DNA of 64,000 nucleotides from Escherichia phage p000v. The translations under genes were made by a program, and so were the position numbers. Positions within the stretch are counted from its first letter, which is position 1. The number at the start of each line of letters is the position of its first letter. Below the pieces are notes generated by a model. That model made no database searches, was not told the origin of the DNA, and saw only the letters and a list, made by a program, of their open reading frames with translations. Below are positions 44,182-64,000 of this stretch, piece after piece. The DNA lies in sequence record NC_055781.1. One strand, 5' to 3'.

Positions 44182-44253
44182 GGCCCTGTAGCTCAATGGG
44201 AGAGCTGTCAGCTCATAACTGATAGGTAGCTGGATCGAAACCAGCCAGGGCCA
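44182..44253 (+). tRNA. tRNA with anticodon CAU (Met, or Ile if C34 is modified)
   Basis: Cloverleaf folded by hand: acceptor GGCCCTG/CAGGGCC (7 bp), D-stem GCTC/GAGC, anticodon stem GTCAG/CTGAT with loop CTCATAA (anticodon CAT at 44214-44216), 5-nt variable loop, T-stem GCTGG/CCAGC with loop ATCGAAA, discriminator A. No encoded CCA. Confidence 0.8.
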
Positions 44254-48144: not shown

Positions 48145-48747
48145 ATGCGAAACCAAAATAATGATATTGACTCAATGTTCGAAGAGTTCCGAGATAAGGT
48201 AAATCCACCTACGTCTTTAGTTGATTCATTACGATATGTTGCAACTGGGCGTAAATGGTACTGGTCGTCTTCTTATGAGACCACCGAGAAAACAGCTAGC
48301 CATAGCAGAAAATCTTTATTGGCCCCGGGTATTATGATTCATGATATCGGAGCTATTGCTAAACTAGTTGCAGACCATGATATTAGATTCACTGATTTCG
48401 TTGCTCCTACGTGGTCTGTTTGTTGTTTAAACACTGAATGGGAATATATCAGCGAACGCTCTGAAGATTATTATGGTTTTAGAGATAAGCTTCTGAGGTC
48501 TAATATGTTTTATATCGATACAGAAGTTCTAGTCGATAATAAAAAATATTACTTTACGTTAATCATCGATTCTGAAACTATGTATGAAGGCAAGCCTTTG
48601 CTTAAAAGAGTTGATGCTTTAAGTGCTATTGATGCGCTTTATGAAACTATGGTTGTTAGTCCTAATTTCACTAACAATTTAATCCTTGAGCAATTTATTA
48701 TGGAATGTAGAGAATATGTCAAAGCCAACCCTATACATGCCAAGTAA
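48145..48747 (+). CDS. Hypothetical protein with C-terminal QFIMECR motif
   Basis: Start at M8 of the track ORF (SD AAAGGAG); 200 aa; C-terminus ...LILEQFIMECREYVKANPIHAK shares a motif with 48716, 51356 and 52349. Confidence 0.55.
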   Translation: MRNQNNDIDSMFEEFRDKVNPPTSLVDSLRYVATGRKWYWSSSYETTEKTASHSRKSLLAPGIMIHDIGAIAKLVADHDIRFTDFVAPTWSVCCLNTEWEYISERSEDYYGFRDKLLRSNMFYIDTEVLVDNKKYYFTLIIDSETMYEGKPLLKRVDALSAIDALYETMVVSPNFTNNLILEQFIMECREYVKANPIHAK

Positions 48748-49108
48748 GCCCTGGGCGTATGAATACAAGCGTAAATTAATCCCAAATGAAGTACTATTTG
48801 GCCCTATTTTAGCTTTAGCATTTTTAATCTTTATGATTATAGGAGCTGTTTTAGATTCTAGTGAAGTTATATCGTCTGATGCAGCATTTTCATTAATGTT
48901 CGTCGCACCACTTATTATACCGTTTTTATTAATGCCTATTAACTGGATGGGATATTGGTACCAAGGACGTCATCACAGAGCCCGATTAAGAGAATGGAAA
49001 GTTCAGTGCGCAAAAGCCCAAGCTCAGTATGATGAAGCTGTTAAAAAGTATGAATATGAAGAAGCTATGGAATTCGTTAAGGAAATAAGATGCAAAAGCC
49101 TTAACTGA
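48716..49108 (+). CDS. Membrane protein (two TM helices) with C-terminal EFVKEIRCK tail
   Basis: Start uncertain (ATG 48716 or 48737; track ORF begins with TTG at 48686); TM segments ILALAFLIFMIIGAVL and FSLMFVAPLIIPFLLMPI; helical C-terminal tail. Confidence 0.5.
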   Translation: MSKPTLYMPSKPWAYEYKRKLIPNEVLFGPILALAFLIFMIIGAVLDSSEVISSDAAFSLMFVAPLIIPFLLMPINWMGYWYQGRHHRARLREWKVQCAKAQAQYDEAVKKYEYEEAMEFVKEIRCKSLN

Positions 49109-49206
49109 ATTTATGCTGTTTACGCTTCTCAAATGATTAGTTATAATGAACTCCTAGCTAAACGTGAAAATGAAACAATCGAAAACTTTATTAAGGAATG
49201 TAGAAA

Positions 49207-49512
49207 ATGAGTAAGATTATTGAAATTAAAGTACCAGAGTTTAATGATGCCAAATCCGCTTCAGATGCAATTTATAAACTTCTGAATCAAGCTGAACGTA
49301 TCGAAGAAGAAGCAACAAAGATCGCAGACCAATACGCTGTATCGTTTTCTGTAGGTGATTATGGTAGCGGTCGTACTTATTATCCTAAGGGTGAAATCGT
49401 ATCCCAGTGGATGAAAAATGAAATTGAAAATAATGGTGGCGACGTTAAGCGTGAAGGTAATGGTTACGTTATTACTGAAGGTGCTTGGGTTTCGTCTTCT
49501 GCGTTGTGCTAA
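49207..49512 (+). CDS. Small protein, member A of tandem triplicated family (C-terminal GAWVSSSALC)
   Basis: 101 aa; shares helical N-terminus and C-terminal G-W-V-S/A-S-S-x-x-C motif with 49522 and 49804. Confidence 0.6.
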   Translation: MSKIIEIKVPEFNDAKSASDAIYKLLNQAERIEEEATKIADQYAVSFSVGDYGSGRTYYPKGEIVSQWMKNEIENNGGDVKREGNGYVITEGAWVSSSALC

Positions 49513-49521
49513 GGAATCATT

Positions 49522-49794
49522 ATGTCTAAAGAACAAACCGAACTGGCTGAAGCCGTAGCAAAAATCTATGCAGCTATTGAGGCTGCCAAAGAAATTGCTA
49601 ATAAACAAAACACAACATTCGACTTGTATCCAGCTTATGGCATGGGTGGAACCTATCATTCACCAGGACATCTTAAAGCCGATCTTGAACGTTGTACAAA
49701 AAACGGCTATGCTGAATGGGCTGACGTTTACCAATACGACTACAACTTGAGCCTTGAAGATGGCGGTTGGGTTGCATCTTCTCACACTTGTTAA
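49522..49794 (+). CDS. Small protein, member B of tandem triplicated family (C-terminal GGWVASSHTC)
   Basis: 90 aa; paralogue of 49207 and 49804. Confidence 0.6.
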   Translation: MSKEQTELAEAVAKIYAAIEAAKEIANKQNTTFDLYPAYGMGGTYHSPGHLKADLERCTKNGYAEWADVYQYDYNLSLEDGGWVASSHTC

Positions 49795-49803
49795 GGAAAT
49801 CAT

Positions 49804-50001
49804 ATGTCTCGTGAATTAGATTGTGCTGTACGTACAGCAGTAGCTGCCCTAGAAAACCTGTTCCAGATTGCAACCGAAGAGCGTGAAGAAGTTACATTGT
49901 GGATTGAAGATAACGCAGGTCTGAATCTCCAGGACGCAATCTCGTTATCAAATAATAGTATTACTGTTCAAGGCTGGGTATCATCTAGTTATTCTTGCTA
50001 A
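49804..50001 (+). CDS. Small protein, member C of tandem triplicated family (C-terminal QGWVSSSYSC)
   Basis: 65 aa; paralogue of 49207 and 49522. Confidence 0.6.
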   Translation: MSRELDCAVRTAVAALENLFQIATEEREEVTLWIEDNAGLNLQDAISLSNNSITVQGWVSSSYSC

Positions 50002-50005
50002 AACA

Positions 50006-50063
50006 GTTTACAACAAGATAGGGCTATGTTATAGTAGTCCTATCAAATTAAATGGAGTCTACA
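50006..50063 (+). promoter_or_regulatory. Early promoter + stem-loop cassette (PeSL-like)
   Basis: GTTTAC (50006-50011), TGTTATAGT inside the inverted repeat ATAGGGCTA...TAGTCCTAT, leader CTATCAAATTAAA, SD GGAG. Confidence 0.6.
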
Positions 50064-50303
50064 ATGATTTATTATGAAAGTATCGGAACCGAAGTAGTTG
50101 CTAAAACTATTACTCGTGAAAAGTTTGCAAAGATATTCGATATGCGTTATAAAAAATCTGAACACAAAGGCATCCGATTCGAAGATGCGCACTGTACAAT
50201 TTGCCCTTATAATGAAGACATAAACGGTACAATCGTTCCATTGGTAGAGGCTTCACATGATGACCTCTGGGATGAATATAATATCGCATGTCGCGAAATT
50301 TAA
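50064..50303 (+). CDS. Hypothetical protein
   Basis: Start at M5 of the track ORF (SD GGAG 6 nt upstream); 79 aa. Confidence 0.5.
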   Translation: MIYYESIGTEVVAKTITREKFAKIFDMRYKKSEHKGIRFEDAHCTICPYNEDINGTIVPLVEASHDDLWDEYNIACREI

Positions 50304-50328: not shown

Positions 50329-51285
50329 ATGATGTTAGTTATTGGTTCTCGTGCACTTCACTATCACGGCCTTATTGATTCTAGCGCTATCAAAAATAGT
50401 GATTGGGACTTTATTGCGGACCAAGGTTCTTGGAATGTATTCAAAAATCAAATGATGGGCGTATATGTTCACCAAGATAACCCTGATGTCCAAGTTTTCA
50501 AATGCTTCCATAATGGACGCGAAACTCATTTTGAAGCATACATTGTTCCGGCAATCACTAATGTCCGTGAATTAGTCGGTGAACTCACTCCTGAAGATTT
50601 CACGTCTTCTTATGACCTTTTAAAATACGCCAAGAAAAATTTGACTAAAGACCGTTTGAACGGGTTTTACTGGGCAACTCCTGAGATGTGTCTTGCAATT
50701 AAGATGTCTCATCGTTTCAAGAAAAATAATCCATTCTTTTTAAAGACTATGAACCATATTCAGTATCTTCGTGGTAAAGGTGTTACACTGAACGATGAAC
50801 TTACTGAAATTATGCTGAAACGCCAGAAAGAAACCTTGAATTATGCTCACCCGGTTCTTGACACTTCTAAAAGCGCATTCTTTAAAGATGACATCTACAC
50901 ATACGATCATGATACTATTCACGAAGCCATTGCACTAACAGACCGTCCAGCGTATACATTTTATATGAAAGATGGTTCTGAAGTCATGACCTCACGCGAG
51001 AAGTTCGAATCATTACCGGAAATGGTCAAATTGGCCGGCGTATACGAAGAATCATGTGTACTAGCATTAGAACGTTCTCAGATTCCTAATAACTTTGAAA
51101 TCCATCCACGTGATAGTTTTATGATAGCTCTTGAAAAGGTCTGTACTTCAATCACGTCAGGCTGGTTCCGTGAGTATGCCTGGGAGAACTATGGCAAAGT
51201 AGTAAGTATGTATCAAAGCTTAGGACATGACGATTATGTCAAACGTTTCAAACAAAATTTCCATATGGTAAAACCTTTCAAATAA
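50329..51285 (+). CDS. Hypothetical protein with Pol-beta-type nucleotidyltransferase-like motif
   Basis: 318 aa; N-terminal LVIGSRALHYHGL...NSDWDFIAD (GS...SDxDF pattern similar to the 63423 protein); rest alpha-helical. Confidence 0.4.
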   Translation: MMLVIGSRALHYHGLIDSSAIKNSDWDFIADQGSWNVFKNQMMGVYVHQDNPDVQVFKCFHNGRETHFEAYIVPAITNVRELVGELTPEDFTSSYDLLKYAKKNLTKDRLNGFYWATPEMCLAIKMSHRFKKNNPFFLKTMNHIQYLRGKGVTLNDELTEIMLKRQKETLNYAHPVLDTSKSAFFKDDIYTYDHDTIHEAIALTDRPAYTFYMKDGSEVMTSREKFESLPEMVKLAGVYEESCVLALERSQIPNNFEIHPRDSFMIALEKVCTSITSGWFREYAWENYGKVVSMYQSLGHDDYVKRFKQNFHMVKPFK

Positions 51286-51297
51286 CTTCACAAAACT

Positions 51298-51355
51298 GTT
51301 TACAACAAGATAGGACTATGTTATAGTAGTCCTATTAAAACACGAGGAGAATATT
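51298..51355 (+). promoter_or_regulatory. Early promoter + stem-loop cassette (PeSL-like)
   Basis: GTTTAC (51298-51303), TGTTATAGT inside the inverted repeat ATAGGACTA...TAGTCCTAT, SD GAGGAG. Confidence 0.6.
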
Positions 51356-51661
51356 ATGAAATTAGGCGAAACCAACCGAATTGGTCTTTTAACAATATTT
51401 GCATCACCTTTTTACGCAGCTCTTTCTGTTGCAGTATTACAAAAGGCTTACGATATGGATGGTGTTCCTGGTTGTATATTCTTATCACCATTTTTGTTAT
51501 TCGTTGGAGCACTGCTATTATACGCCACGACTAGTTTCGACCATAATGTCTGGGTTAATTATAAATGTAAATTGTCTGAAGAAGAACACGCAGAAGCTCG
51601 TAAAAAAGCTATTGAATCTACCAATCTAGAAAATTTCATTAAAGAATGTCGAGGAAAATAA
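51356..51661 (+). CDS. Membrane protein with C-terminal ENFIKECR tail
   Basis: 101 aa; two hydrophobic segments (IGLLTIFASPFYAALSVAVL, CIFLSPFLLFVGALLLYA); C-terminus ...NLENFIKECRGK. Confidence 0.55.
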   Translation: MKLGETNRIGLLTIFASPFYAALSVAVLQKAYDMDGVPGCIFLSPFLLFVGALLLYATTSFDHNVWVNYKCKLSEEEHAEARKKAIESTNLENFIKECRGK

Positions 51662-51662
51662 T

Positions 51663-52349
51663 ATGAATAGTTCTAAAGTGTTTAATAGTCAAGCTCGTGC
51701 AGTAGGTGGTTTCGCTGGCCGTATCAGTAATGATAAAATTAAAAATGAGCCTATGTTCTTCAACTGCGACCTGAAGTTTGCTTTTGATAACGGCGGTCCT
51801 ATCACTCGTTCTTTCATCATGAATCTGCCTGATGACTGGAACACTAATGAAGTAGTATTCGATTCACGTGTTCATATGCTTATGCCTGGCTGGTATCCTG
51901 CTATTCCTGGATACCACCATGACGATGTTCCTCGCCCTGATATTCCAGTCGGCCAACACTTTATTACTGCAGGACAACCTGACTATGATAACCCTCGTTA
52001 CCATTCTGAACATATTCTTGGTCTTGTTAACGCTGACGTGTGTCCTACTCATTTTGCAACAGGAACTGCAGAGTTCAGTCAGATTCCTGATGGCGAACTT
52101 ATCTATCGCCAGTGGCACAAAGAAGTCCTCGAAAAAATCGAAAAAGGCGAACTAGAGAAATGGGAAGCTCCAGACCGTACTCTTCTTCAGTTTGATTGGC
52201 AAACATGGCACACTGGTTCTCGTGCAATTAGTAATGGATGGCGTTGGTTCGGGCGTGTATCTCGTAATACAGACCGAGTTAAAAAGATTACCAATGAAAT
52301 TCGTGTCAACGCTCAAGTTTATCTAGAATTCCCTATGGAAGGCTGGTAA
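51663..52349 (+). CDS. Hypothetical protein
   Basis: 228 aa ORF tightly packed after 51356; His/Asp-rich segment (YHHDDVPRPD...HSEH). Confidence 0.5.
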   Translation: MNSSKVFNSQARAVGGFAGRISNDKIKNEPMFFNCDLKFAFDNGGPITRSFIMNLPDDWNTNEVVFDSRVHMLMPGWYPAIPGYHHDDVPRPDIPVGQHFITAGQPDYDNPRYHSEHILGLVNADVCPTHFATGTAEFSQIPDGELIYRQWHKEVLEKIEKGELEKWEAPDRTLLQFDWQTWHTGSRAISNGWRWFGRVSRNTDRVKKITNEIRVNAQVYLEFPMEGW

Positions 52350-52840
52350 TGATTAACAAAACATATTGGTCTAATATTGACGACGGCAATGAAGGTATTT
52401 CGTACTATTCAGTGGATTGGACAGGATGTCCATCCTACTTAGTGAAACGTATTTGCCAAGAATTTAAAATCGACCAGCCAGCAGGTATTATCGTGAACAG
52501 ATACATTAATGGATATCAACCTATCGATGAAGTAATACGAACAACTCAAGCTGATCTTGAAAAGTTTTTCAATAAGTGCCAATGGATAACAGGATGGATT
52601 ATATTTGTACCGTCGGTATGGTTTTTTAGTACTAAGGTGAGTTCTTTCGGTTTTGTTGATATTATTGCTATCTTATTAGCATCTACTATCGTAAGTATAA
52701 TTGGTGGTATAATTGGTGGAGGTACTATAGGCATCATTATTAATCTTGTTAAAAGTAGTTTACAGGAACGTAAAGACAAGATAAAGGCCAAGAATAACGA
52801 AGTTGAACGTTTTATTACCGAATGCAGGAATTTGAGATGA
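52349..52840 (+). CDS. Membrane protein with C-terminal ERFITECR tail
   Basis: 163 aa; soluble N-domain, two TM segments (WIIFVPSVWFF, FVDIIAILLASTIVSIIGGIIGGGTIGIIINLV), C-terminus ...NNEVERFITECRNLR. Confidence 0.55.
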   Translation: MINKTYWSNIDDGNEGISYYSVDWTGCPSYLVKRICQEFKIDQPAGIIVNRYINGYQPIDEVIRTTQADLEKFFNKCQWITGWIIFVPSVWFFSTKVSSFGFVDIIAILLASTIVSIIGGIIGGGTIGIIINLVKSSLQERKDKIKAKNNEVERFITECRNLR

Positions 52841-53555: not shown

Positions 53556-54044
53556 ATGAATATATTTGAAATGCTTCGTAATGACGAAGGTCTTAGACTG
53601 ACTTTATACAAAGACACCGAAGGCTTTTGGACGATTGGCATAGGCCATTTGGTAACAAAGAACCCGTCTTTAGCCGTAGCTAAAGCTGAACTTGACAGAA
53701 TGATCGGTCGTAAATGCAACGGCACAATTACCCTTGATGAGGCTGAAAAGCTATTTAATGAAGACGTTGATAAAGCCGTTCGTGGAATCTTGGGTAATGC
53801 TAAACTTAAACCAGTGTATGATTCTTTAGACGCGGTTCGTCGATGTGCATTAGTCAATATGGTCTTCCAAATGGGTGTAGCAGGCGTCGCAGGTTTTACT
53901 AATTCTCTTCGTATGCTTCAACAGAAACGTTGGGATGAAGCGGCAGTAAATCTAGCCCAATCTAAATGGTATCGTCAGACACCTAATCGCGCGAAACGCG
54001 TAATCTCAACATTTAAAACAGGAACTTGGAAAGCGTATATATGA
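53556..54044 (+). CDS. e: Endolysin, T4 lysozyme (gene e)
   Basis: Start at M5 of the track ORF (SD GGGAGG); 162 aa; [32 protein letters not shown]... essentially T4 lysozyme with catalytic Glu11/Asp20/Thr26 context. Confidence 0.95.
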
Positions 54045-54322
54045 AAACATATAGTGAATTTTTATCAGAATCTATTCTTAACGAAGCTACCGACACATTT
54101 GCAACTAAGCTAGGTGCAGCTTTGGTTGAAGCGGAAAGTCTATTAGCACGTATTTCTGAACTTGCCAGTAAGATAGATACTCGCAAATTTGAACGTACCA
54201 GTGATATCGTTAAGCTTGAAGCCTTGTTGCGTATGTGCGATAAACCGGAAGAAATCGCTAAGAACGGCTCGTTAATGAAACAACGTCTTGAAAAATATAT
54301 TTCAGGCGCTTCAGAAAAATAG
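54041..54322 (+). CDS. Small protein with CTS-like N-terminus (candidate internal protein)
   Basis: Start at M6 of the track ORF, ATGA overlap with the e stop; 93 aa; N-terminus [10 protein letters not shown]|S (LxE site). Confidence 0.55.
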
Positions 54323-55125: not shown

Positions 55126-55440
55126 ATGAAAACGTATAAAGAATTTATTGCAGAATCCGCCAACCAACGCGTTGAAGGTGGTTATATTTGGATTGAACAA
55201 GTTGAGCCACCGAGCCGCACTTCTACAGGTAAATGGAAAATTACCGTTGATGGTCCTGGTGGTAAACGTAGGACTCTTAAAGAAATTAACGGGTACTATG
55301 AAGAAGCTCTTTCGGATGCAGGAACTTACATGATGCAAATCATGATTAAAAACCCTGAAAACCGTTTTGCAGCTAAAGTCTTCCGCCGCATCGGTAATAA
55401 ACTTTATGATGCATACTCTAAAAACTTCCCTAAAGAATAA
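55126..55440 (+). CDS. Internal protein (IPII-like) with capsid targeting sequence
   Basis: 104 aa; N-terminus MKTYKEFIAE|S; basic; size close to T4 IPII (100 aa). Confidence 0.65.
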   Translation: MKTYKEFIAESANQRVEGGYIWIEQVEPPSRTSTGKWKITVDGPGGKRRTLKEINGYYEEALSDAGTYMMQIMIKNPENRFAAKVFRRIGNKLYDAYSKNFPKE

Positions 55441-55465: not shown

Positions 55466-56044
55466 ATGAAAACTTATAAAGAATTTATCGCCGAGGCCTT
55501 TGCAGGAAAAGCTCAAGGCATTAATAAGGACGAGTGGAATTATCGTGGCGGAAACGGCTTTGACCCTAAAACTGCTCCACTTGAACGATATCTAGCCACA
55601 AAAGCTTCTGATTTTAAAGCATTCGCTTGGGAAGGACTTCGCTGGCGTAACGATCTAAATATTGAAGTTGACGGACTCAAATTTGCTCATATTGAAGATG
55701 TTGTTGCTAGTAACTTAGATGCAGCTTTTGTTAAAGCCGACAGCGACCTTCGTCGCTGGAATTTAAAACTGTTCTCTAAACAAAAAGGCCCGAAGTTTGT
55801 GCCTAAAGCAGGTAAATGGGTTATTGATAATAAATTGGCTAAAGCTGTCAACTACGCTGGGCTTGAATTTGCCAAGCATAAATCATCATGGAAAGGTCTT
55901 GATGCAATGACTTTCCGTAAAGAATTTGCCGATGTTATGGCTAAAGGCGGCTTTAAGGCAGAAATAGATACCTCTAAAGGTACGTTTAAAGACGCTAATG
56001 TTCAGTACGCTTACGCCGTTGCTAATGCAGCCCGTGGTAATTAA
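55466..56044 (+). CDS. Internal protein (IPIII-like) with capsid targeting sequence
   Basis: 192 aa; N-terminus MKTYKEFIAE|A; size close to T4 IPIII (194 aa). Confidence 0.65.
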   Translation: MKTYKEFIAEAFAGKAQGINKDEWNYRGGNGFDPKTAPLERYLATKASDFKAFAWEGLRWRNDLNIEVDGLKFAHIEDVVASNLDAAFVKADSDLRRWNLKLFSKQKGPKFVPKAGKWVIDNKLAKAVNYAGLEFAKHKSSWKGLDAMTFRKEFADVMAKGGFKAEIDTSKGTFKDANVQYAYAVANAARGN

Positions 56045-62952: not shown

Positions 62953-63426
62953 ATGATTATCAATGAAAACTCTTGGCACTTTAAAATTTATGCCGCGTTT
63001 AATAGTACATGGAATCGCCCGAAAACGTTGTGTGCTTATTTTTGGAAAACGTTAATCCCGGTATTGGCTGTTTCAATTATTGGATTTGCGATTTTAGCCG
63101 CAGTCACAATCATTGGCCAGGAAATTTTAACTAAATTCTTTGTTTTTAGCAGTCTATGGACATTAGTTCCAGCCTCAATTGGTGTAGGTGTTTTATTCAT
63201 TGCATTATGTGTTGGTATTTCTATAGTTTTAGTATTAGGCATACCGTGGCTAATCGACTTATACAGAGAGCGGAAGTATTATAAAGAAGTTGAGCTCATT
63301 GCACAAAACCAAGAACGAATTAAAAATGGACTTGAGCCTATTGAACGTAAGAAATCATTAATAGGTGAATACCTTAAAGCTCGTAAAGAAAAAGTCTGTC
63401 CTACTCTTGAATATAAGGCTAAATGA
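62953..63426 (+). CDS. Membrane protein (three or four predicted TM helices)
   Basis: 157 aa; hydrophobic segments LIPVLAVSIIGFAILAAVTII, LVPASIGVGVLFIALCVGISIVLVLGIPWLI; basic C-terminal tail. Confidence 0.55.
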   Translation: MIINENSWHFKIYAAFNSTWNRPKTLCAYFWKTLIPVLAVSIIGFAILAAVTIIGQEILTKFFVFSSLWTLVPASIGVGVLFIALCVGISIVLVLGIPWLIDLYRERKYYKEVELIAQNQERIKNGLEPIERKKSLIGEYLKARKEKVCPTLEYKAK

Positions 63427-64000
63427 TGAAAACGATTGTTAAGGCTTACTTTGGTAGCCACCTTTATGGAACGTCTACTCCTGAATCTGACGTCGATTTT
63501 AAAGAAATTTATGTCCCTCATGCTCGTGATATCTTGACCGGTAACGTTAAAGAACACATGAGCAAGAACACGAATAACACATCTTCTAAGAACACAAAAG
63601 ACGACGTGGACCATGAGTTGTATAGTCTCAAATATTTCTTTAAACTAGCTGCGGATGGTGAAACCGTCGCATTAGACATGCTTCACACTCCACCAAGTCT
63701 AGTAGTTAAATCTGATTTGCCTGATGTATGGAAGTATATTCAAGATAACAGGTCTCGTTTCTATACCACTAACATGAAATCTTATTTAGGGTACGTCCGT
63801 AAGCAAGCTTCTAAATACGGTGTCAAGGGTTCTCGACTGGCTGTTCTTCGTCAAGCCCTTAAACGTTCTAATGAATGGGGACAATACTTTGATAACGGTG
63901 CAGTAATTCGTTTATCACATATGAAGAATGTTCTGCCTGTAGGTGAATTTGCTTCGTGGGTTGAAACCGAAAACGAGAAAACAGGTAAGCAAACATTCTA
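63423..64000 (+). CDS. Predicted nucleotidyltransferase (Pol-beta superfamily motif), truncated at window end
   Basis: ATG 63423 (ATGA overlap); no stop within window; N-terminus YFGSHLYGTSTPESDVDF fits the hG[GS]x(9-13)DhDh minimal nucleotidyltransferase signature. Confidence 0.55.
   Translation, partial: MMKTIVKAYFGSHLYGTSTPESDVDFKEIYVPHARDILTGNVKEHMSKNTNNTSSKNTKDDVDHELYSLKYFFKLAADGETVALDMLHTPPSLVVKSDLPDVWKYIQDNRSRFYTTNMKSYLGYVRKQASKYGVKGSRLAVLRQALKRSNEWGQYFDNGAVIRLSHMKNVLPVGEFASWVETENEKTGKQTF

Follow-up and report, generated by a model that had tools for sequence, protein, structure and literature searches.

What does the 318-amino-acid (aa) open reading frame (ORF) in a 64,000-nucleotide (nt) stretch of the Escherichia phage p000v genome (NC_055781.1; the whole stretch is hereafter called the window) encode, and with which of its neighbors does it work? 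A sequence-only reading had noticed in its N-terminus a minimal nucleotidyltransferase (NTase) signature of the Pol-beta superfamily and had placed the gene at the head of a membrane-protein cluster lying downstream. Here, we describe a predicted NTase whose conserved partners are instead encoded upstream, as a family of small acidic proteins that end in a common W-x-x-S-S-(x-x)-C tail. The NTase itself is unsurprising; the new element is this obligate tail-tagged partner family. Two sets of hypothetical proteins are thereby turned into a testable enzyme-partner system, composed of a phage-only and putatively early-expressed NTase and the tail-tagged proteins linked to it.

A predicted nucleotidyltransferase confined to phages

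The 318-aa ORF is a genuine gene, with an ATG start codon and a GAGG ribosome-binding site 8–9 nt upstream. The N-terminus of its product, MMLVIGSRALHYHGLIDSSAIKNSDWDFI, contains G6-S7, a 17-residue spacer, and D25-W-D27-F. Among 261 homologues, G6 was conserved in 260 and S7 in 256, the replacements at this position being T or G (S, T, or G in 260); D25 was conserved in 258 (otherwise E) and D27 in 260, and the third acidic residue, E69, was E or D in 257. In the AlphaFold model of the protein, which is of high confidence (pLDDT 91.7, pTM 0.86), these residues fall on the secondary-structure elements expected of them: strand 2–5 runs through a VIG6S7 turn into helix 7–12, placing the GS pair where strand 1 turns into helix 1, D25-x-D27 opens strand 26–31 (strand 2), and E69 lies within strand 64–73. 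The hG[GS] motif, the metal-binding [DE]x[DE] pair, and the later-strand carboxylate of the Pol-beta NTase fold are all present, and the model is similar in three dimensions to solved NTases, its structural neighbors being the tRNA-end NTases MenT1/3/4 and the antibiotic NTases ANT(2'') and LnuA. By fold and active site, the 318-aa protein is thus predicted to be a Pol-beta-superfamily NTase. The signature noticed from the sequence is borne out, and the acidic pair is conserved in the homologues. The same reading had treated the assignment as tentative because the GS-to-DxD spacing was longer than canonical; the spacing is long in this protein, but family members span about 10 to 22 residues, and relatives with shorter loops fall within the canonical 9–13. 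The length here is a loop insertion, and the motif is no chance occurrence.

The protein matched two Pfam families, DUF7277 (aa 2–101, E = 3e−27, 95.5 bits) and DUF7275 (aa 120–305, E = 3.5e−78, 262.3 bits), against a curated cut-off of 27 bits, and it matched PHROG 2141 over its full length (E = 1.8e−149). It is therefore a member of all three families, whose entries give the function as unknown, make no NTase assignment, and record no partner. When 39 members of the family were searched against Pfam at E-values up to 10, only the two DUFs were recovered, and DUF1814, NTP_transf_2, and RlaP were not. A search of PDB sequences with the family profile gave nothing real (the sole match was PsaB, E = 0.8), and searches of NCBIfam and PADLOC gave nothing meaningful beyond a marginal, chance-level PADLOC match. 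Literature searches, which included the DUF names, phage MenT-like enzymes, and phage protein AMPylation, found no description of the module or of the DUF families among the papers covered. In the helical C-terminal domain, K125, H128, K139, H194-D195-x-x-H198, E240-E241, and E248-R249 are universal in DUF7275, and the motif SITSGWFRE (aa 274–282) is the mark of the core family that is associated with the tail-tagged partners.

Homologues occurred in 732 of 50,697 phage records (about 1.4%). Their bearers include T4-like phages of Escherichia, Klebsiella, Enterobacter, Aeromonas, and Acinetobacter, and further homologues were found in Pseudomonas Otagovirus, in Stenotrophomonas, Vibrio, Gordonia, and Streptomyces phages, and in jumbo phages. 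An exhaustive profile search yielded 1,585 clusters at 50% identity, nearly all of about 300 aa and with both domains. Meanwhile, 185,579 bacterial and archaeal species genomes gave five matches, all on contigs of metagenome-assembled genomes (MAGs), and on three of these contigs the NTase was adjoined by ORFs for tail-tagged proteins (hereafter tail ORFs). The NTase family is thus essentially phage-specific.

Some records attach structural names to homologues, such as “prohead assembly scaffold protein” in Klebsiella phage vB_KpnM-VAC36 and “major capsid protein” in Escherichia phage vB_EcoM_JQD51. Such names would suit a catalytically dead NTase fold retained for a structural or binding role, but the residues that bind metal and nucleoside triphosphate (NTP) are near-invariant in the 261 homologues, unlike those of dead enzymes, and the gene is preceded by an early-promoter-like site within an early-gene region. 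Nothing in this analysis supports the structural names, which look like annotation errors, and we regard a dead fold as barely credible. The NTase is conserved and presumably active.

Two-way linkage with small tail-tagged proteins

To define the neighborhood of the NTase gene, all ORFs within 4 kb of it were clustered in 80 viral loci, representing 20 lineages at 60% identity. The tail-tagged family was found near the NTase in 18 of the 20 lineages (73 of the 80 loci), always on the same strand and at a median distance of 866 nt upstream, and no other neighbor cluster occurred in more than three lineages. At the locus of Stenotrophomonas phage IME-SM1, whose NTase (315 aa) carries SITSGWFR, there were only weak matches to the small-protein profile, and these lay downstream. 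The reciprocal scan was blind to the NTase and searched all IMG/VR contigs for a DNA pattern encoding W-V-S-S-S-x-x-C-stop. It returned 30 loci, comprising 27 genuine tail ORFs and three chance matches. Twenty-one of the 27 were on contigs already listed with an NTase, and those that were mapped lay within about 2 kb upstream of it; five were followed directly by an NTase homologue; and the remaining one was on a 3.6-kb contig that ends just past the small ORFs. The association is therefore two-way, with no exception found among the 27 scanned tail ORFs. The window shows the same arrangement, in which a small ORF ending in W-x-x-S-S-(x-x)-C stands beside the NTase, nearly always upstream and on the same strand: it contains exactly three tail ORFs, and all of them are directly upstream of the NTase unit. 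The sequence-only reading had looked for the partners of the enzyme downstream, on the wrong side of the gene.

The small proteins are mostly 50–160 aa long and strongly acidic (median isoelectric point [pI] 4.4), and they occur as tandem paralogues in one to several copies per locus, with up to four copies that carry the strict motif, and more if relatives with double motifs or variant tails are included. Common to them are an N-terminal helix and the invariant end W-x-x-S-S-(x-x)-C-COOH, and many also have a YG-x-G-x-x-Y-Y motif, but their bodies have a mean column identity of only 18%. Pfam contained no family for them, and the model of the 101-aa member in the window (AF2, pLDDT 89), which begins with a long helix at residues 15–43, matched no fold among solved structures. 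Word-indexed homologue searches gave no more than 6 and 24 matches for the small proteins, and the size of the family was therefore judged from the loci. Among 10,257 ORFs, 139 ended in the strict pattern W.[SAT][SAT][SAT]..C, against about 0.05 expected by chance on a rough estimate from residue frequencies. The tail serines are encoded by both TCN and AGY codons, which indicates that selection acts at the protein level.

Loci missed by the strict pattern have variant tails, namely WYNSSESC and WSPSSESY in Acinetobacter phages, WDSSTC, and WYPSSC, and the constant elements of the tail are the Trp, a Ser at Trp+3, and a terminal Cys at Trp+5 or Trp+7. A sub-family with two tags (loci L006–L034 and others, for example, L007:6893–7117 and L016:6709–6933) carries an internal DW(L/N)(N/S)SSC, then YGEE.G..F, and then a terminal W(Y/Q)(P/S)SSC, suggesting that the unit was duplicated and that a free C-terminus is dispensable for some copies. 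Two ideas about the cysteines were considered and set aside or weakened. That Cys243 and Cys272 of the NTase track the Cys-terminated partner, in a disulfide or a shared metal site, was rejected, since many partner-associated members have Tyr at position 243 and C272 also occurs in phage G and DSS3_VP1, which lack the partner. The case for a lanthionine-type ring between Ser and Cys of the tail is weakened because the two residues are not at a fixed distance (Cys at Trp+5 or Trp+7) and some paralogues end in Tyr.

Candidate roles of the tail

The explanation that we favor, although our confidence in it stops somewhat short of an even chance, is that an active NTase docks the tail tag and nucleotidylylates a serine within it. 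DUF7277 would carry the NTP/Mg2+ site, formed by G6-S7, D25, D27, and E69, and K125 and K139, in the first helices of the C-terminal domain, probably complete it. The enzyme and the acidic small proteins encoded upstream would constitute an early-expressed two-part module, in which the helical DUF7275 domain would dock the W-x-x-S-S-(x-x)-C tag and a nucleoside monophosphate (NMP) would be moved from the NTP to the invariant serine at Trp+3, giving Ser-O-NMP. This nucleotidylylation may modify or activate a set of diversified phage effector proteins. The analysis established the fold, the conservation of the catalytic residues, the near-confinement to phages, the two-way linkage, and the protein-level selection on the tail; from these we infer a contact between tail and enzyme and serine as the acceptor, and the identity of the nucleotide and the action of the modified proteins are likewise matters of inference. 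The presence of one tag on several paralogues, the fast divergence of the protein bodies, and the lack of tag divergence between lineages fit an enzyme with many tagged substrates. Transfer of a nucleotide or nucleotide-derived group by an NTase fold to the hydroxyl of a specific partner protein has a precedent in MntA-HepT, GlnE/GlnD, DrrA, and the serine-directed prosthetic-group transferases CitX/MdcG, each of which has one dedicated substrate protein rather than a family bearing a C-terminal tag and most of which act on tyrosine; no sequence similarity or specific structural similarity to the 318-aa protein was detected for any of these.

The proposal could be taken further. It is possible, but rather doubtful, that the module is a phage-specific system of post-translational tagging, in which the NTase reads the C-terminal tag and nucleotidylylates or further processes diversifying acidic effectors. 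The tail would then act as a CaaX-type modification signal on anti-host proteins, and in the stronger form the H-D-x-x-H / EE / ER site of DUF7275 would catalyze a further reaction on the tail once it is modified. Should the tail prove to be the substrate, viral proteins would be modified in a new way and the small proteins would form a new class of effectors, whose acidity, paralogy, and rapid divergence would make a role in anti-defense or host takeover plausible.

Several observations weigh against nucleotidylylation of a tail serine. The Pol-beta-fold protein modifiers known to us (GlnE, GlnD, DrrA, and MntA) all act on tyrosine, and the nearest structural relatives of the 318-aa protein act on tRNA 3' ends (MenT) or antibiotics (ANT, Lnu) and not on protein serine. 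Some paralogues lack the terminal Cys (Kimel, ...WSPSSESY), and the Trp-to-Cys spacing is 5 or 7. The proposed mechanism gives no role to the conserved H194-D195-x-x-H198 / E240-E241 / E248-R249 set of DUF7275. Finally, distant relatives with the same catalytic set have no tail-tagged neighbor within 2.5–4 kb, so that the basic chemistry can do without the partner. These are proteins of about 250–265 aa in Gordonia phage ClubL, Streptomyces phage Circinus, and Vibrio phages K406 and PVA23, and of about 300–335 aa in Bacillus phage G and DSS3_VP1.

The surroundings of these partner-less relatives are varied. Genes of the Prs-like, phosphatase, and Nampt-like NAD-salvage type lie near the relative in Vibrio phage K406 (L092 216–3169); Nampt, RNA ligase 2, and a phosphoesterase in DSS3_VP1 (L091 1265–2810 and 8185–8837); a polynucleotide kinase in Streptomyces phage Circinus (L095 1–293); and a tRNA cluster in Gordonia phage ClubL (L090 5847–7984). 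Such loci hint, anecdotally, at an anti-defense or RNA-repair neighborhood. The RNA-repair and tRNA genes near the relatives in DSS3_VP1, Circinus, and ClubL, the retention of the catalytic set in the absence of a partner, and the structural neighbors MenT1/3/4, ANT(2''), and LnuA would all suit an enzyme that works alone on RNA ends or small molecules, either repairing or tailing the 3' ends of tRNA or other RNA or adenylylating aminoglycosides or lincosamides, with the small proteins as mere neighbors. However, mere synteny cannot explain an association seen in 18 of 20 lineages over unrelated phage groups and in 26 of 27 tail ORFs; the RNA-repair contexts amount to three or four loci; and the same phage already encodes a dedicated RNA-repair NTase of the RlaP type (see below). 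With regard to antibiotics, ANT(2'')-Ia (AadB) and LnuA differ from the 318-aa protein in being single-domain enzymes of 158–175 aa with no partner and no match at the level of sequence family, and there was no sign of an antibiotic substrate for the 318-aa protein. We consider a stand-alone enzyme improbable.

The comparison with MenT toxins bears on a different role for the small proteins. On its modeled structure, the 318-aa protein would work and fold like the branch of the superfamily that contains MenT/AbiEii and ANT/Lnu, but it lies outside this branch in sequence and genomic context. It shares Pol-beta motifs I and II and lysines in the following helices with MenT/AbiEii proteins (DUF1814), and especially with MenT1-MenA1 of Mycobacterium tuberculosis, in which a small protein with a long helix is likewise encoded immediately upstream of the NTase (PMC10435456). 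MenT1 is neutralized by this 68-aa protein, the long helix of which blocks the active sites (PMC10435456), and the genes of the phage small proteins lie upstream too, their products beginning with a long helix (residues 15–43). A toxin/antitoxin-like arrangement would follow, in which the NTase adds nucleotides to the 3' ends of host tRNA or to other RNA in a MenT-like manner and so shuts off the host, while the small proteins, as inhibitors or pseudo-substrates in the manner of MenA1, tune the activity by plugging the active site with their tail; their acidity would also be in keeping, as nucleic-acid mimics are often acidic. The resemblance is limited, however. No DUF1814 match was obtained in the Pfam searches of the 39 members, and the K...R...K helix of the 318-aa family is only visually like MenT motif III. 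Furthermore, the family has an extra helical domain of about 150 residues with the invariant H-D-x-x-H / EE / ER set, and it is restricted to phages, absent from bacterial chromosomes and plasmids except for the five MAG-contig matches, rather than residing in bacterial toxin-antitoxin or Abi loci. The phage partners also differ from the MenA antitoxin in being multi-copy and acidic and in bearing one invariant tag. It is unusual for an antitoxin to occur as several tandem copies that have diverged strongly, and the tag is invariant over lineages and paralogues, whereas toxin-antitoxin interfaces normally diverge for specificity; constancy of the tag between lineages is the opposite of what insulated toxin-antitoxin pairs show. 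Inhibition by the small proteins is therefore unlikely in our estimation, although, if it does occur, the module would give phages an equivalent of the MenT/AbiE toxin systems with which bacteria resist them.

The tail might instead be an anchor. In such an adaptor arrangement, the constant tail would hold each small protein on DUF7275, the variable body would bind a different host protein or nucleic acid in each case, and the NTase would nucleotidylylate that target. The two-way linkage between NTase and tail supports an adaptor as much as it supports modification of the tail itself, and hypervariable bodies with a constant tag and several paralogues per genome fit an arms-race diversification of target-binding modules. 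No target is known, and the invariant S-S hydroxyl pair beside the Trp looks more like an acceptor than an anchor. We know of no precedent for such an adaptor among Pol-beta NTases and rate the idea as low in probability as an enzyme acting alone. Whether the tail is a substrate or an inhibitor, annotations need revision, since the membrane cluster downstream has no relation to the NTase and the capsid and scaffold names of some homologues are unsupported by this analysis.

Organization of the locus and its neighbors

The phage is T4-type and RB69-like (Mosigvirus-like). The + strand of the window encodes homologues of T4 e lysozyme, NudE, DenV, internal proteins, and thymidine kinase, and the top database matches of the locus are RB69-group coliphages. 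The counterpart position in T4 holds other genes, e.2–e.8, which places the NTase locus in a variable early-gene region. A paper on the arabinosyl-hydroxymethylcytosine pathway of RB69 gave no involvement of the 318-aa gene. The features of the locus are listed in Table 1.

Table 1. Features in and around the NTase locus, with positions in the 64,000-nt window
Feature	Position	Strand	Remarks
Early-promoter-like site, TTTACG-17-TATAAT, before the three small ORFs	49119–49147	+	Consensus match only
Tail-tagged protein 1, 101 aa (RB69ORF139c, PHROG 899)	49207–49512	+	pI 4.7; tail WVSSSALC, 49486–49509
Tail-tagged protein 2, 90 aa	49522–49794	+	Tail WVASSHTC, 49768–49791
Tail-tagged protein 3, 65 aa (PHROG 4882)	49804–50001	+	Tail WVSSSYSC, 49975–49998
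68-nt direct repeat, copy 1	50000–50067	+	Promoter-like site 50007–50035 (TTTACA-17-TATAGT, TG) and stem-loop
83-aa ORF (PHROG 3723)	50052–50303	+	Near NTase in 15/80 loci
Predicted NTase gene, 318 aa (DUF7277 + DUF7275, PHROG 2141)	50329–51285	+	ATG ORF
Predicted N-terminal catalytic NTase domain, aa 2–101 (DUF7277)	50332–50631	+	Invariance in 261 homologues; strand/helix placement in model
Predicted catalytic codons	G6-S7, 50344–50349; D25-x-D27, 50401–50409; E69, 50533–50535	+	
Helical C-terminal domain, aa 120–305 (DUF7275)	50686–51243	+	Most conserved part
68-nt direct repeat, copy 2	51292–51359	+	Promoter-like site 51299–51327 and stem-loop; 82% identical to copy 1
101-aa protein (PHROG 2203)	51356–51661	+	Two hydrophobic segments
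228-aa protein (PHROG 1843)	51663–52349	+	No hydrophobic segment
163-aa protein (PHROG 2203)	52349–52840	+	Hydrophobic segment around residues 92–135
RlaP-family NTase ORF (PF10127, PHROG 388)	63423–64000	+	Runs past window end; RlaP profile E = 6e−11

The three small ORFs are joined by TAAGGAA stop/Shine-Dalgarno junctions, which couple their translation. The two copies of the 68-nt repeat share a near-identical core of about 45 nt, each with a T4-early-type promoter-like site and an inverted repeat, and they bracket a cassette in which the 83-aa ORF is followed by the NTase gene. This ORF probably shares a transcript with the NTase, but it is not a conserved partner of it. Given the early-gene region and the early-promoter-like sites before both units, the NTase and the small proteins are likely to be expressed early. 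The repeats resemble the boundaries of promoter-early stem-loop cassettes in T4-type phages, a likeness that would explain the patchy distribution of the cassette.

The second copy of the repeat separates the NTase gene from the ORFs downstream, so that the NTase gene is not the head of their transcription unit, and the downstream membrane-protein, 228-aa, and NudE genes appear to have an early promoter of their own. The sequence-only reading had joined the NTase to two membrane proteins and a 228-aa His/Asp-rich protein. The three ORFs exist as described, although the enrichment in the 228-aa protein, which is soluble, is only mild (3.9% His and 7.0% Asp; it is also rich in Trp, at 3.9%), but no functional link to the NTase emerged. 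Of the 80 loci, only one had the 101-aa protein near the NTase and 14 had the 163-aa protein; the 228-aa protein was present in 24, corresponding to 2 of 20 lineages. In Aeromonas phage 31 and Yersinia phage phiR1-RT, the 228-aa gene and the NTase gene are well apart. The 228-aa protein is present in 471 phage records, among them Mycobacterium, Gordonia, and Bacillus phages, and some of its phage groups fall outside the ten most frequent organism names bearing the NTase; it is better conserved than the NTase, with 74–95% identity where that of the NTase is 64–75%. The 228-aa protein is thus a module independent of the NTase. It had no match in Pfam, PDB sequences, or PADLOC, and a relationship to DSS3_VP1 gp038 was dismissed as not significant (E = 0.068).

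An operon headed by the NTase would agree with the adjacency and shared direction of these genes in the window and with the fact that, in T-even-like phages and some Aeromonas phages, the 228-aa gene follows the NTase gene within about 2–3 kb. The lineage counts, the separate promoter-like site downstream, and the repeats that bracket the NTase cassette all speak against it, as does the presence of the 228-aa protein, unlinked, in other phages. The accompanying suggestion, that the NTase disrupts defense signaling by nucleotide second messengers, fares no better: similarity of the 318-aa protein to cGAS/DncV-like (CD-NTase) or OAS-type enzymes was at noise level, and the PADLOC match was no better than chance. 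We consider this pair of proposals very improbable.

The ORF at 63423, which the earlier reading had likened to the 318-aa protein, carries YFGSHLYGTSTPESDVDF, with a canonical GS-x10-DxD motif. RlaP has been proposed to restore lost nucleotides in phage RNA repair (PMC7824862). The likeness holds for the GS...DxD superfamily signature and for the fact that both are phage-encoded, but not for any closer kinship: the 318-aa protein had no match to the RlaP profile, and the hhalign probability was 0.1%. RlaP is also linked to RNA ligases, whereas the 318-aa family is linked to tail-tagged small proteins. The genome thus has a putative second NTase in the 63423 product, related to the 318-aa protein only at the level of the superfamily.

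Other features of the region were noted in passing. Three small membrane proteins (48686–49108, 51356–51661, and 52349–52840, all on the + strand) have similar amphipathic tails, ...EFVKEIRCKSLN, ...NFIKECRGK, and ...RFITECRNLR, respectively, and look like a paralogous family scattered through the early region. The sole tRNA gene in the window is that for tRNA-Met (CAT) at 44182–44253 (+), and the equivalent place in T4 is occupied by a cluster of eight tRNAs. Three further ORFs on the + strand (54026–54322, 55126–55440, and 55466–56044) have the N-terminus MKTY(S/K)EF..E, which is similar to the N-terminal capsid-targeting sequence of the T4 internal proteins (IPII/IPIII).

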